From Escherichia coli (GTDB taxonomy: Bacteria > Pseudomonadota > Gammaproteobacteria > Enterobacterales > Enterobacteriaceae), in NCBI RefSeq assembly GCF_013315695.1, contig NZ_CP054353.1: 64,000 nucleotides of DNA; one strand, given 5' to 3'. Both the position numbers and the translations under genes were made by a program. Shown here one piece after another: positions 46,943 through 51,579 of this stretch (positions are counted from its first letter, which is position 1; the number at the start of each line of letters is the position of its first letter). The notes under the pieces are model-generated. The model made no database searches and was not told where the DNA came from. It was given only the letters and a program-made list of their open reading frames with translations.

Positions 46943-47902
46943 ATGAGTCTGAATTTCCTTGATTTTGAACAGCCGATTGCAGAGCTGGAAGCGAAAATCG
47001 ATTCTCTGACTGCGGTTAGCCGTCAGGATGAGAAACTGGATATTAACATCGATGAAGAAGTGCATCGTCTGCGTGAAAAAAGCGTAGAACTGACGCGTAA
47101 AATCTTCGCCGATCTCGGTGCATGGCAGATTGCGCAACTGGCACGCCATCCACAGCGTCCTTATACCCTGGATTACGTTCGCCTGGCATTTGATGAATTT
47201 GACGAACTGGCTGGCGACCGCGCGTATGCAGACGATAAAGCTATCGTCGGTGGCATCGCCCGTCTCGATGGTCGTCCGGTGATGATCATTGGTCATCAAA
47301 AAGGTCGTGAAACCAAAGAAAAAATTCGCCGTAACTTTGGTATGCCAGCGCCAGAAGGTTACCGCAAAGCACTGCGTCTGATGCAAATGGCTGAACGCTT
47401 TAAGATGCCAATCATCACCTTTATCGACACCCCGGGGGCTTATCCGGGCGTGGGCGCAGAAGAACGCGGTCAGTCTGAAGCCATTGCACGCAACCTGCGT
47501 GAAATGTCTCGCCTTAGCGTACCGACTATTTGTACCGTTATCGGTGAAGGTGGTTCTGGCGGCGCGCTGGCGATTGGCGTGGGCGATAAAGTGAATATGC
47601 TGCAATACAGCACCTATTCCGTTATCTCGCCGGAAGGTTGTGCGTCCATTCTGTGGAAGAGCGCCGACAAAGCGCCGCTGGCGGCTGAAGCGATGGGTAT
47701 CATCGCTCCGCGTCTGAAAGAGCTGAAACTGATCGACTCCATCATCCCGGAACCGCTGGGCGGCGCTCATCGTAACCCGGAAGCGATGGCGGCATCGTTG
47801 AAAGCGCAACTGCTGGCGGATCTGGCCGATCTCGACGTGTTAAGCACTGAAGATTTAAAAAATCGTCGTTATCAGCGCCTGATGAGCTACGGTTACGCGT
47901 AA
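46943..47902 (+). CDS. accA: Acetyl-CoA carboxylase carboxyltransferase alpha subunit
   Basis: 319-aa [28 protein letters not shown]... ending LMSYGYA. Confidence 0.97.
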
Positions 47903-47927
47903 TTCGCAAAAGTTCTGAAAAAGGGTC

Positions 47928-47938
47928 ACTTCGGTGGT
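47928..47938. repeat. Left copy of 11-bp target-site duplication CACTTCGGTGG flanking IS4
   Basis: Identical 11-mer directly abuts both ends of the IS4 element. Confidence 0.8.
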
Positions 47939-47988
47939 AATGCCGATCAGTTAAGGATCAGTTGACCGATCCAGTGGCTGTGTAAGAA

Positions 47989-48022
47989 TCCGGAAACGCT
48001 CACTTGTTTCCGGATTTTTTTA
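47989..48022 (+). terminator. IS4-internal hairpin + T-tract immediately upstream of the transposase ATG
   Basis: ATCCGGAAAC-gctcactt-GTTTCCGGAT followed by TTTTTTT, ending at the insG start codon. Confidence 0.55.
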
Positions 48023-49350
48023 TGCACATTGGACAGGCTCTTGATCTGGTATCCCGTTACGATTCTCTGCGTAACCCACTGACTTCTCTGGGGGATTACC
48101 TCGACCCCGAACTCATCTCTCGTTGCCTTGCCGAATCAGGTACTGTAACGCTACGCAAGCGCCGTCTTCCCCTCGAAATGATGGTCTGGTGTATTGTTGG
48201 CATGGCGCTTGAGCGTAAAGAACCTCTTCACCAGATTGTGAATCGCCTGGACATCATGCTGCCGGGCAATCGCCCCTTCGTTGCCCCCAGTGCCGTTATT
48301 CAGGCCCGCCAGCGCCTGGGAAGTGAGGCTGTCCGCCGCGTGTTCACGAAAACAGCGCAGCTCTGGCATAACGCCACGCCGCATCCGCACTGGTGCGGCC
48401 TGACCCTGCTGGCCATCGATGGTGTGTTCTGGCGCACACCGGATACACCAGAGAACGATGCAGCCTTCCCCCGCCAGACACATGCCGGGAACCCGGCGCT
48501 CTACCCGCAGGTCAAAATGGTCTGCCAGATGGAACTGACCAGCCATCTGCTGACGGCTGCAGCCTTCGGCACGATGAAGAACAGCGAAAATGAGCTTGCT
48601 GAGCAACTTATAGAACAAACCGGCGATAACACTCTGACGTTAATGGATAAAGGTTATTACTCACTGGGACTGTTAAATGCCTGGAGCCTGGCGGGAGAAC
48701 ACCGCCACTGGATGATACCTCTCAGAAAGGGAGCGCAATATGAAGAGATCAGAAAACTGGGTAAAGGCGATCATCTGGTGAAGCTGAAAACCAGCCCGCA
48801 GGCACGAAAAAAGTGGCCGGGACTGGGAAATGAAGTGACAGCCCGCCTGCTGACCGTGACGCGCAAAGGAAAAGTCTGCCATCTGCTGACGTCGATGACG
48901 GACGCCATGCGCTTCCCCGGAGGAGAAATGGCGGATCTGTACAGTCATCGCTGGGAAATCGAACTGGGATACAGGGAGATAAAACAGACGATGCAACTGA
49001 GCAGGCTGACGCTGAGAAGTAAAAAACCGGAGCTTGTGGAGCAAGAGCTGTGGGGTGTCTTACTGGCTTATAATCTGGTGAGATATCAGATGATTAAAAT
49101 GGCGGAACATCTGAAAGGTTACTGGCCGAATCAACTGAGTTTCTCAGAATCATGCGGAATGGTGATGAGAATGCTGATGACATTGCAGGGCGCTTCACCG
49201 GGACGTATACCGGAGCTGATGCGCGATCTTGCAAGTATGGGACAACTTGTGAAATTACCGACAAGAAGGGAAAGGGCCTTCCCGAGAGTGGTAAAGGAGA
49301 GGCCCTGGAAATACCCCACAGCCCCGAAAAAGAGCCAGTCAGTTGCTTAA
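48022..49350 (+). CDS. insG: IS4 transposase (DDE family)
   Basis: Track ORF 48004-49350; start trimmed to [27 protein letters not shown]; 442 aa; matches my recollection of IS4 InsG. Confidence 0.92.
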
Positions 49351-49364
49351 CTGACTGGCATTAC

Positions 49365-49375
49365 ACTTCGGTGGC
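49365..49375. repeat. Right copy of 11-bp target-site duplication CACTTCGGTGG flanking IS4
   Basis: Identical to 47928-47938; followed by CCCTTTTTT, the 3' half and U-tract of the split accA terminator. Confidence 0.8.
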
Positions 49376-49437
49376 CCTTTTTTATCGCCACGGTTTGAGC
49401 AGGCTATGATTAAGGAAGGATTTTCCAGGAGGAACAC

Positions 49438-51579
49438 ATGAACATCATTGCCATTATGGGACCGCATGGCGTCTTTTATAAAGATGAGCCCATCAAAGAA
49501 CTGGAGTCGGCGCTGGTGGCGCAAGGCTTTCAGATTATCTGGCCACAAAACAGCGTTGATTTGCTGAAATTTATCGAACATAACCCTCGAATTTGCGGCG
49601 TGATTTTTGACTGGGATGAGTACAGTCTCGATTTATGTAGCGATATCAATCAGCTTAATGAATATCTCCCGCTATATGCCTTCATCAACACCCACTCGAC
49701 GATGGATGTCAGCGTGCAGGATATGCGGATGGCGCTCTGGTTTTTTGAATATGCGCTGGGGCAGGCGGAAGATATCGCCATTCGTATGCGTCAGTACACC
49801 AACGAATATCTTGATAACATTACACCGCCGTTCACGAAAGCCTTGTTTACCTACGTCAAAGAGCGGAAGTACACCTTTTGTACGCCGGGTCATATGGGCG
49901 GCACCGCATATCAAAAAAGCCCGGTTGGCTGTCTGTTTTATGATTTTTTCGGCGGGAATACTCTTAAGGCTGATGTCTCTATTTCGGTTACCGAGCTTGG
50001 TTCGTTGCTCGACCACACCGGGCCACACCTGGAAGCGGAAGAGTACATCGCGCGGACTTTTGGCGCGGAACAGAGTTATATCGTTACCAACGGAACATCG
50101 ACGTCGAACAAAATTGTGGGTATGTACGCCGCGCCATCCGGCAGTACGCTGTTGATCGACCGCAATTGTCATAAATCGCTGGCGCATCTGTTAATGATGA
50201 ACGATGTAGTGCCAGTCTGGCTGAAACCGACGCGTAATGCGTTGGGGATTCTTGGTGGGATCCCGCGCCGTGAATTTACTCGCGACAGCATCGAAGAGAA
50301 AGTCGCTGCTACCACGCAAGCACAATGGCCGGTTCATGCGGTGATTACCAACTCCACCTATGATGGCTTGCTCTACAACACCGACTGGATCAAACAGACG
50401 CTGGATGTCCCGTCGATTCACTTCGATTCTGCCTGGGTGCCGTACACCCATTTTCATCCGATCTACCAGGGTAAAAGTGGTATGAGCGGCGAGCGTGTTG
50501 CGGGAAAAGTGATCTTCGAAACGCAATCGACCCACAAAATGCTGGCGGCGTTATCGCAGGCTTCGCTGATCCACATTAAAGGCGAGTATGACGAAGAGGC
50601 GTTTAACGAAGCCTTTATGATGCATACCACCACCTCGCCCAGTTATCCCATTGTTGCTTCGGTTGAGACGGCGGCGGCGATGCTGCGTGGTAATCCGGGC
50701 AAACGGCTGATTAACCGTTCGGTGGAGCGGGCGCTGCATTTTCGCAAAGAGGTCCAGCGGCTGCGGGAAGAGTCTGACGGTTGGTTTTTCGATATCTGGC
50801 AACCGCCGCAGGTGGATGAAGCCGAATGCTGGCCCGTTGCGCCTGGCGAACAGTGGCACGGCTTTAACGATGCGGATGCCGATCATATGTTTCTCGATCC
50901 GGTTAAAGTCACTATTTTGACACCGGGGATGGACGAGCAGGGCAATATGAGCGAGGAGGGGATCCCGGCGGCGCTGGTGGCAAAATTCCTCGACGAACGT
51001 GGGATCGTAGTAGAGAAAACCGGCCCTTATAACCTGCTGTTTCTCTTTAGTATTGGCATCGATAAAACCAAAGCAATGGGATTATTGCGTGGGTTGACGG
51101 AATTTAAGCGCTCTTACGATCTCAACCTGCGGATCAAAAATATGCTGCCCGATCTCTATGCAGAAGATCCCGATTTCTACCGCAGTATGCGTATTCAGGA
51201 TCTGGCGCAAGGGATCCATAAGCTGATTCGTAAACACGATCTTCCCGGTTTGATGTTGCGGGCATTTGATACCTTGCCGGAGATGATCATGACGCCACAT
51301 CAGGCATGGCAGAGACAGATTAAAGGTGAAGTAGAAACCATTGCGCTGGAACAACTGGTCGGTAGAGTATCGGCAAATATGATCCTGCCTTATCCACCCG
51401 GCGTACCGCTGTTGATGCCTGGAGAAATGCTGACCGAAGAGAGCCGCACGGTACTCGATTTTCTACTGATGCTTTGTTCCGTAGGGCAACATTACCCCGG
51501 TTTTGAAACGGATATTCACGGCGCGAAACAGGACGAAGACGGCATTTACCGCGTACGAGTCCTAAAAATGGCGGGATAA
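49438..51579 (+). CDS. ldcC: Constitutive lysine decarboxylase
   Basis: 713-aa ORF MNIIAIMGPHGVFYKDEPIKELESAL...; preceded by AGGAGG. Confidence 0.96.
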   Translation: MNIIAIMGPHGVFYKDEPIKELESALVAQGFQIIWPQNSVDLLKFIEHNPRICGVIFDWDEYSLDLCSDINQLNEYLPLYAFINTHSTMDVSVQDMRMALWFFEYALGQAEDIAIRMRQYTNEYLDNITPPFTKALFTYVKERKYTFCTPGHMGGTAYQKSPVGCLFYDFFGGNTLKADVSISVTELGSLLDHTGPHLEAEEYIARTFGAEQSYIVTNGTSTSNKIVGMYAAPSGSTLLIDRNCHKSLAHLLMMNDVVPVWLKPTRNALGILGGIPRREFTRDSIEEKVAATTQAQWPVHAVITNSTYDGLLYNTDWIKQTLDVPSIHFDSAWVPYTHFHPIYQGKSGMSGERVAGKVIFETQSTHKMLAALSQASLIHIKGEYDEEAFNEAFMMHTTTSPSYPIVASVETAAAMLRGNPGKRLINRSVERALHFRKEVQRLREESDGWFFDIWQPPQVDEAECWPVAPGEQWHGFNDADADHMFLDPVKVTILTPGMDEQGNMSEEGIPAALVAKFLDERGIVVEKTGPYNLLFLFSIGIDKTKAMGLLRGLTEFKRSYDLNLRIKNMLPDLYAEDPDFYRSMRIQDLAQGIHKLIRKHDLPGLMLRAFDTLPEMIMTPHQAWQRQIKGEVETIALEQLVGRVSANMILPYPPGVPLLMPGEMLTEESRTVLDFLLMLCSVGQHYPGFETDIHGAKQDEDGIYRVRVLKMAG

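Follow-up and report, generated by a model that had tools for sequence, protein, structure and literature searches.

IS4 at the end of accA carries a hairpin in front of its transposase gene

The stretch analysed here, 64,000 nucleotides of Escherichia coli contig NZ_CP054353.1 (hereafter the window), contains a copy of the insertion sequence IS4 between accA and ldcC, and our subject is a hairpin that lies inside the left end of this element, directly before the start codon of its transposase gene. Upstream of IS4 are dnaE and accA; the accA coding sequence (46943–47902, + strand) was identified from its open reading frame (ORF) and from the RefSeq annotation of the identical locus in strain MSB1_4I (NZ_LR898874.1), and its transcripts now enter IS4. 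The downstream gene, ldcC (49438–51579, +), was identified from its ORF and RefSeq annotation.

The element occupies 47938–49363 (+). An earlier note on this DNA, made from the sequence alone, had called it IS4, and this is borne out by its length of 1426 bp, its 18-bp terminal inverted repeats (47938–47955 and 49346–49363), an 11-bp target duplication (CACTTCGGTGG; 47927–47937 and 49364–49374), within the 10–13 bp expected, and a single DDE transposase with an IS4 N-terminal domain (Pfam Nterm_IS4, 3e-33; DDE_Tnp_1, 9e-32), all characteristic of subgroup IS4 of the IS4 family. The copy in MG1655, annotated there as an IS4 mobile element, is identical at 1422 of 1426 positions (4 differences), and its left end is identical. 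When 5426 complete E. coli genomes were compared, only two, those of MSB1_4I and NZ_OZ547117.1, had the accA–IS4 junction (47800–48150); since 18 places in each of them match the junction query, this lineage carries an unusually high load of IS4.

The hairpin corresponds to positions 51–84 of the 1426-bp element, between the left end and the transposase start, and faces inward; together with the T-run and ATG, this region of the window reads gtgtaagaATCCGGAAACgctcacttGTTTCCGGATttttttATG. Its 5' arm (47984–47998, +) consists of a perfect core, ATCCGGAAAC (47988–47997), preceded by an A-rich extension (47984–47987), and its 3' arm (48005–48019, +) contains the matching core, GTTTCCGGAT (48006–48015), which holds the only Shine-Dalgarno-like (SD-like) sequence, GGA at 48012–48014. 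Between them lies the loop gctcactt (47998–48005, +), and the run of seven T (48015–48021, +), a U-tract in RNA, abuts the start codon. The earlier note had described a hairpin and seven T residues running into the transposase ATG at 47985–48025; we find a 10-bp stem, an 8-nt loop, T7 and the ATG at 48022, and those coordinates were right to within 3 nt. The core stem is 10 perfect base pairs, or 10–11 perfect pairs as counted, 5 of them G-C, and the first T of the T7 is also the last base of the stem, so that six T are left unpaired after a 10-bp stem. Pairing of AAGAAU with AUUUUU, one G·U included, can extend the stem to 14–15 pairs.

Folding of the region, a check that the earlier note had named, gave −22.8 kcal/mol for the 51 nt from 47980 to 48030 (z = −7.1), and none of 200 shuffles folded as well; the core hairpin alone accounts for −14.6 kcal/mol. 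When both strands of the whole window were scanned for stems of at least nine perfect pairs with a loop of 3–10 nt and at least six T in the next 8 nt, trimming of longer stems being allowed, two sites were found, the left hairpin and a second hairpin at the right end of IS4, and the same scan of 30 first-order Markov simulations returned none. No Rfam family matched across 47700–49600. The hairpin is real, and it is very probably functional.

In the reading that we favour, and which we think is probably correct, it is an inward-facing intrinsic (Rho-independent) terminator carried by IS4 itself, which acts on transcripts reading into the element from outside, also hides the ribosome-binding site of the transposase gene, and has the element's own, resident promoter nested within it.

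The position of the start codon matters here. The transposase gene, encoding InsG (442 amino acids), spans 48022–49350 (+) according to its ORF, the MG1655 insG annotation and its Pfam domains, with the ATG at 48022–48024 opening 442 codons that end at 49350. In the RefSeq annotation of the identical locus the protein begins instead at an in-frame TTG at 48004 (448 amino acids), which would place the start within the loop and 3' arm of the hairpin. We rejected this start. The TTG is not conserved among relatives, most of which have CCG, and the ATG at 48022 is therefore the likelier start; insG of MG1655 also begins with ATG (442 amino acids).

The hairpin and T-run are conserved, with compensating changes in the stem

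To examine conservation we scanned one genome per species, which gave a close set of 67 IS4-like loci with 51–96% protein identity, from Klebsiella, Pectobacterium, Rosenbergiella, Photorhabdus, Yersinia, Buttiauxella, Budvicia, Kosakonia and a marine gammaproteobacterium. A hairpin, a run of 6–8 T and the ATG follow one another in each of the 21 distinct left ends in this range of identity. The loop is free to vary in both sequence and length from one relative to another, while the stem is kept. Three copies from Rosenbergiella and Erwinia have changed both sides of the stem, from CCGG/CCGG to CCAG/CTGG, and in a relative with 51% identity both arms have changed, from CCGGAAAC/GTTTCCGG to CCATAATC/GGTTATGG. 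Overall, the cells of the core stem are essentially 100% paired. Both sides have changed at six pairs of the whole structure tested, of which four belong to the core stem. The covariation measures were reached by 0–1 of 500 shuffles, and in controls in which the structure was slid along the sequences pairing dropped to 24–52%.

With more distant relatives, which are plasmid copies, taken in, we examined 25 gammaproteobacterial relatives with protein identities down to 35%. Every one of them keeps the layout of hairpin, T-run and ATG, although the stems of the distant copies differ. In Proteus (52% amino acid identity) the arrangement is ATCCGATGAC/GTCATCGGAT + T7 + ATG, in Photobacterium (47%) ATCCAAGtG/CtCTTGGAT + T7 + ATG, in an E. 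coli plasmid relative (39%) AACGGCTTCC/GGGAGCCGTT + TTCTT + ATG, and in Vibrio tapetis (35%) AATCGGTCGTAAC/GTTACGGCCGATT + T + ATG. Searches with a covariance model of the close set recovered the Photobacterium (E = 2e-12) and Proteus (E = 1e-5) structures, and V. tapetis marginally (E = 0.16). The layout differs in two betaproteobacterial relatives with 36–37% amino acid identity, one on a Burkholderia multivorans plasmid and one in Ralstonia solanacearum. There is no hairpin before the ATG in either; a palindrome followed by T5, TAATGCCGTTCAGTT-gctt-AACTGAACGGCATTTTT, has the left inverted repeat as one of its halves, so that an inward, terminator-like structure lies at the very tip of the element. 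The right-end hairpin is absent from both.

Compensating changes by themselves cannot tell an RNA hairpin from a palindrome that acts as DNA, by binding a dimeric protein (host factor or transposase) or by forming a cruciform during transposition, and the structure does lie 50–80 bp from the left tip, where other elements have subterminal sites for transposase or host factors. A DNA palindrome should show G·U and A·C cells alike. Of the cells in the core stem, 278 are Watson-Crick, 33 are G·U, none is A·C and 3 are of other kinds. This imbalance, together with a T-run that is present on one side only, favours an RNA on the transposase (+) strand. The distant relatives likewise keep the structure and its 3' T-run through wholesale replacement of the stem, and the hairpin scores poorly as a terminator when read on the minus strand (see below). 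We therefore consider a role as a DNA palindrome highly improbable.

The left hairpin scores like a native terminator and has a twin at the right end

The features of the left hairpin are those of an intrinsic terminator: a stem containing G+C and a loop of 6–8 nt, both within the usual sizes (stems of about 5–14 bp, loops of 3–8 nt), a U-rich tract directly after the stem, and a score in the range of true terminators. For the score we used the discriminant d of d'Aubenton-Carafa. On the + strand d was +16 to +24 for the left hairpin, compared with +25 for the native accA terminator (energy −11.2 kcal/mol). The two structures are alike in having a stem, a loop and a U-tract, and in their energy and score; they differ in that the IS4 hairpin stands at the 5' rather than the 3' end of a gene, directly against a start codon, and shares part of its sequence with a promoter-like site. 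Read as a terminator on the minus strand, the left hairpin was rejected (d = −34).

In K-12 the empty site reads gaaaaaGGGTCACttcgGTGGCCCttttttatcgcc, with the accA terminator hairpin as AAAAAGGGTCAC-TTCG-GTGGCCCTTTTTT, which places IS4 at the top of that hairpin. Its left remnant (47918–47937, +) retains the A-run (47918–47922), the 5' stem GGGT (47923–47926) and the first copy of the duplication, while its right remnant (49364–49383, +) consists of the second copy followed by CCC (49375–49377) and TTTTTT (49378–49383). Tried as simple hairpins, both remnants were rejected as terminators (d = −94 for the left one and −24 to −37 for the right one), so that the loss of the accA terminator that the earlier note had deduced is upheld by the empty site and by the junctions. 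Its further statement, that the IS4 hairpin is now the first terminator-like signal met by accA read-through transcripts, also agrees with the sequence, since no other hairpin with a T-run lies between the accA stop (47902) and 47988.

The right-end hairpin (49327–49359, − strand) is an inward-facing terminator formed by the right inverted repeat and an internal inverted copy of it. Read inward on the minus strand it is an 11-bp palindrome, GCCAGTCAGTT-AAGC-AACTGACTGGC (49359–49334), followed by TCTTTTT (49333–49327); it is a terminator-like scan match, with d = +0.9. In this case an RNA 3' end is available from cells: Adams et al. 2021 (PMC7815308), by Term-seq of MG1655, placed one at 4502127 (+), antisense to insG, and their 3'-end file has two entries for it. 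It corresponds to position 49326 of the window, directly after the right-end T-run. Gammaproteobacterial relatives with identities down to 47% have kept the right-end hairpin. It is absent from the E. coli plasmid relative with 39% identity, and the right end of the V. tapetis element was not found.

Two further observations concern this end of the element. Supplementary file 2 of Adams et al. lists another significant site antisense to insG, at MG1655 4502176 (+), or about position 49277 on the minus strand of the window, just inside the right-end terminator; if that file compares cells with and without a Rho inhibitor, Rho would serve as a second barrier to transcripts that get past the hairpin. 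Across the right junction (49321–49383), the IS4-internal sequence GCCCCGAA can pair with UUCGG-UGGC of the duplicated target, giving a composite structure (−29.8 kcal/mol, z = −3.8) that encloses the right-repeat hairpin. The composite, a product of chance, stops 2 nt short of the U6 left over from the accA terminator, and it might restore a partial terminator before ldcC.

A resident promoter is predicted to start transcription inside the 5' arm

Only one + strand promoter-like site was found in 47600–49700. This predicted resident transposase promoter (47962–47989, +) has a −35 element TTGACC (47962–47967), a 16-nt spacer and an extended −10 element TGtAAGAAT (47984–47989), of which the last two bases are the first two of the perfect stem. 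Transcription would start near 47996, inside the 5' arm and close to its end, about 26 nt upstream of the ATG. All gammaproteobacterial relatives down to 35% amino acid identity share this geometry, with the −35 element at −57 to −61, a spacer of 16–17 nt and a predicted start at −23 to −26 from the ATG, inside the 5' arm. From this we infer a resident promoter that is nested in the hairpin.

The surroundings of the −35 element are rich in Dam sites. Three GATC sites lie in 47945–47972, at 47945, 47956 and 47968; GATCAGTT forms a direct repeat (47945–47952 and 47956–47963), and the near-palindrome GGATCAG-TTGA-CCGATCC (47955–47972, no strand assigned) contains two of the Dam sites together with the −35-like TTGACC. 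The succession of TTGAC/AC and, directly after it, GATC is conserved down to 35% amino acid identity. This arrangement suggests methylation-sensitive control of the promoter, or transposase binding, as in IS10.

The two kinds of transcript that would cover this region are predicted to fold differently. In nascent read-through RNA (47880–48021) the ten core pairs form with probability 0.98–1.0 and no upstream sequence competes for the 5' arm; the SD-like GGA is paired with a probability of about 1.0, and in the predicted fold the probability of the SD or AUG being unpaired is at most 0.24. The GGA lies in the 3' arm, and the AUG is paired in an extended stem whose outer 5' strand (47970–47982, +) pairs with 48021–48033, which can happen in read-through RNA only; these AUG pairs are present in 20–21 of the 21 sequences, which together with the GGA gives the layout of a fold-back structure. 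A still longer outer helix (47964–47977 with 48025–48040) was rejected as a conserved feature, many of its cells being unpaired. RNA beginning at the predicted start, 47996, folds weakly (−7.3 kcal/mol) and leaves the U-tract and the A of the AUG open, with the SD-like GGA still largely paired in a weak alternative fold.

A probable terminator for read-in transcripts that would also hide the ribosome-binding site

Putting these features together suggests the following sequence of events. RNA polymerase arriving from accA would run through the disrupted accA terminator, then through the left inverted repeat, and transcribe both arms of the hairpin. A hairpin of 10–15 bp would form, and most complexes would release their transcript within the U7, just before or at the AUG, so that the released RNA could not encode transposase. 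Read-through transcripts that escaped would be poorly translated, because their SD-like GGA and AUG would be base-paired. Transcription from the resident promoter, by starting near 47996 at the end of the 5' arm, would instead yield an mRNA with a short leader in which the U-rich leader and the AUG are open, and this mRNA would escape termination because it lacks the 5' arm. At the level of the locus, the left terminator and its right-end twin would stand in for the host terminator that the insertion destroyed. Termination at the left hairpin, the position of the resident start and the effect on translation are thus what we infer from the structures described above. The insulation of the transposase gene that the earlier note had suggested gains comparative support from the conserved hairpin, its compensating changes, the wobble pairs confined to one strand, and the pairing of the SD-like GGA and AUG in predicted read-through RNA.

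Several points weigh against this reading. A·U and G·U pairs make up half of the core stem, and a loop of 6–8 nt is larger than the typical tetraloop, so that termination may be partial. A simple terminator scan gave no + strand listing for the left hairpin, a miss that is likely due to greedy (maximal) stem extension, which consumes the T-run. Independent covariation events are few and come from sequences that are related to each other, and in the extended stem only the AUG-proximal pairs that cover the AUG are kept, its outer part being poorly conserved. The tables of Adams et al. 2021 (PMC7815308) contain no 3' end at the left hairpin of the MG1655 copy (45034xx–45035xx). In the same supplements no 3' end is listed after accA either. 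With a divergent neighbour, nanX, the MG1655 copy is probably little exposed to read-in. Finally, the text of the Cappable-seq and SMRT-Cappable-seq supplements available to us has no insG entries, and the nested promoter is a consensus prediction only.

The hairpin could also work at the level of translation only. In the fold-back inhibition of IS10 and IS50, the distal arm of an inverted repeat covers the translation start; resident transcripts carry the distal arm only, and transcripts from outside carry both arms and fold. To our knowledge, these fold-back structures have no following U-tract and have not been described as terminators. By analogy, the IS4 structure would hide the SD and AUG while releasing little RNA polymerase, and the T-run would be kept for its complementarity to the −10 element or as an A/U-rich translation enhancer. 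The SD-like GGA in the 3' arm fits such a role, as does the pairing of the AUG with 47980–47982 in 20–21 of the 21 sequences, and in IS4 proper the T-run is indeed complementary to the AAGAAT of the −10 element. In the E. coli plasmid relative and in V. tapetis, however, the T-runs reach past any pairing partner and are nevertheless kept beside the ATG. The score of the left hairpin equals that of the native accA terminator, and a 3' end is seen in vivo at the right-end hairpin, where there is no start codon to be hidden. A purely translational role thus seems improbable to us.

Alternatively, the hairpin might be a constitutive attenuator of the element's native transcript, with the start site upstream of it and transposase kept low regardless of transcription from outside. 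In favour of this are the good terminator score and a resident start that is known from prediction only; low transposase expression is, moreover, general among insertion sequences (PMC4513863). Set against this, the only promoter-like site between the left repeat and the ATG would start transcription inside the 5' arm, in a geometry that is conserved down to 35% amino acid identity. An efficient attenuator of the native transcript might also have yielded a 3' end at the hairpin of the single MG1655 copy, and none is listed, though insG expression there may be too low to tell. We regard an attenuator of this kind as rather unlikely, and retain a terminator for read-in transcripts as the preferred explanation.

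IS4-like elements choose terminators as targets

The position of IS4 in the accA terminator is not an accident. From the IS4-like insertions we reconstructed 33 distinct empty sites, 12 of them from near-identical IS4 copies in Kosakonia oryziphila. In 22 of the 33 an A-run, a hairpin and a T-run follow one another with the duplication at the top of the hairpin, an arrangement found in 0.2% of random windows from the same flanks, and 27 of the 33 are terminator-like in at least one direction, compared with 2.8% of random flank windows. Judged from these sites, insertion into terminators is a systematic target choice of IS4. A target consensus of AAA-N20-TTT was reported in the 1980s, as was an insertion into the attenuator of pheST. 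Since host terminator hairpins are preferred for insertion, read-in would be the normal situation for elements of the IS4 type.

In Pectobacterium aroidearum L6, two IS4-like copies at ~0.95 and ~1.06 Mb have swapped target duplications: in both directions, the left flank of one copy matches the right flank of the other. Recombination between the two copies is thus indicated, with a rearrangement of ~110 kb that was probably an inversion.

Taken together, these observations raise the prospect that subgroup IS4 as a whole behaves as a terminator-seeking one-way valve, which inserts into host terminators, carries inward-facing replacement terminators at both ends and, by means of a nested promoter, frees only its resident transcripts from termination and from occlusion of the ribosome-binding site. 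For the gammaproteobacterial elements the left layout extends to 35% identity and the right hairpin to 47%; in the two betaproteobacterial elements examined the left terminator would be the terminal inverted repeat itself, and there is no right hairpin. We judge the chances that this generalization holds to be evenly balanced.

Relation to known systems and implications

Within the IS4 family, very few members (IS231A, IS10R and IS50R) have been studied in detail, according to a review that mentions target-arm specificity and nowhere deals with transcription, promoters or terminators (PMC2266710). Of all subgroups in the family, IS10 and IS50 lie farthest from IS4 (PMC2266710). In both, mRNA structures sequester initiation signals (bioRxiv 10.1101/2025.01.24.634351). 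A left-end inverted repeat and the logic of a start between the arms are features that they share with IS4, the IS4 start being predicted.

A closer parallel in function comes from an unrelated family. IS200, which encodes a Y1 HUH transposase, has a Rho-independent terminator at its left end (nt 12–34) that "protects against impinging transcription", and a separate stem-loop in the tnpA 5' untranslated region (UTR) that sequesters the SD (PMC4513863). Both elements thus have a hairpin terminator of their own between the left end and the transposase start, and in both the ribosome-binding site would be hidden by RNA structure. They differ in that IS200 uses two separate hairpins, with a terminator described as bidirectional, whereas in IS4 one hairpin that scores as a terminator in one direction only would serve both roles. 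In IS200, moreover, transcription starts at about nt 40, downstream of the terminator, while the predicted start of IS4 lies inside the 5' arm. ISPpu9 (PMC8450116) resembles IS4 in inserting into host hairpin sequences and in regulating its transposase through structure in the 5' UTR; it belongs to another IS family, targets repetitive extragenic palindromic (REP) sequences rather than terminators, and involves small RNAs in its regulation.

In the literature that we reached, nothing specific was found on an IS4 hairpin, promoter or terminator targeting. The IS4 hairpin is most likely a familiar type of transposon self-insulation of which this instance is new, or undocumented in that literature. 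Our analysis does not overturn the current view of insertion-sequence regulation, and the broader pattern, although of some added value, would not surprise a specialist. For annotation, it means that IS4 ends should be treated as terminators, that the transposase should be started at the ATG at 48022, and that IS4 insertions can be used as markers of terminator hairpins. The nested layout of promoter within terminator is also compact, which makes it a candidate one-way insulator part.

For the biology of the element, the hairpin would explain how an insertion sequence that lands in terminators behind expressed genes avoids being activated by its neighbours, and also why the neighbouring transcription units stay unfused. 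In this strain, the boundary between accA and ldcC would probably be preserved despite the loss of the accA terminator.

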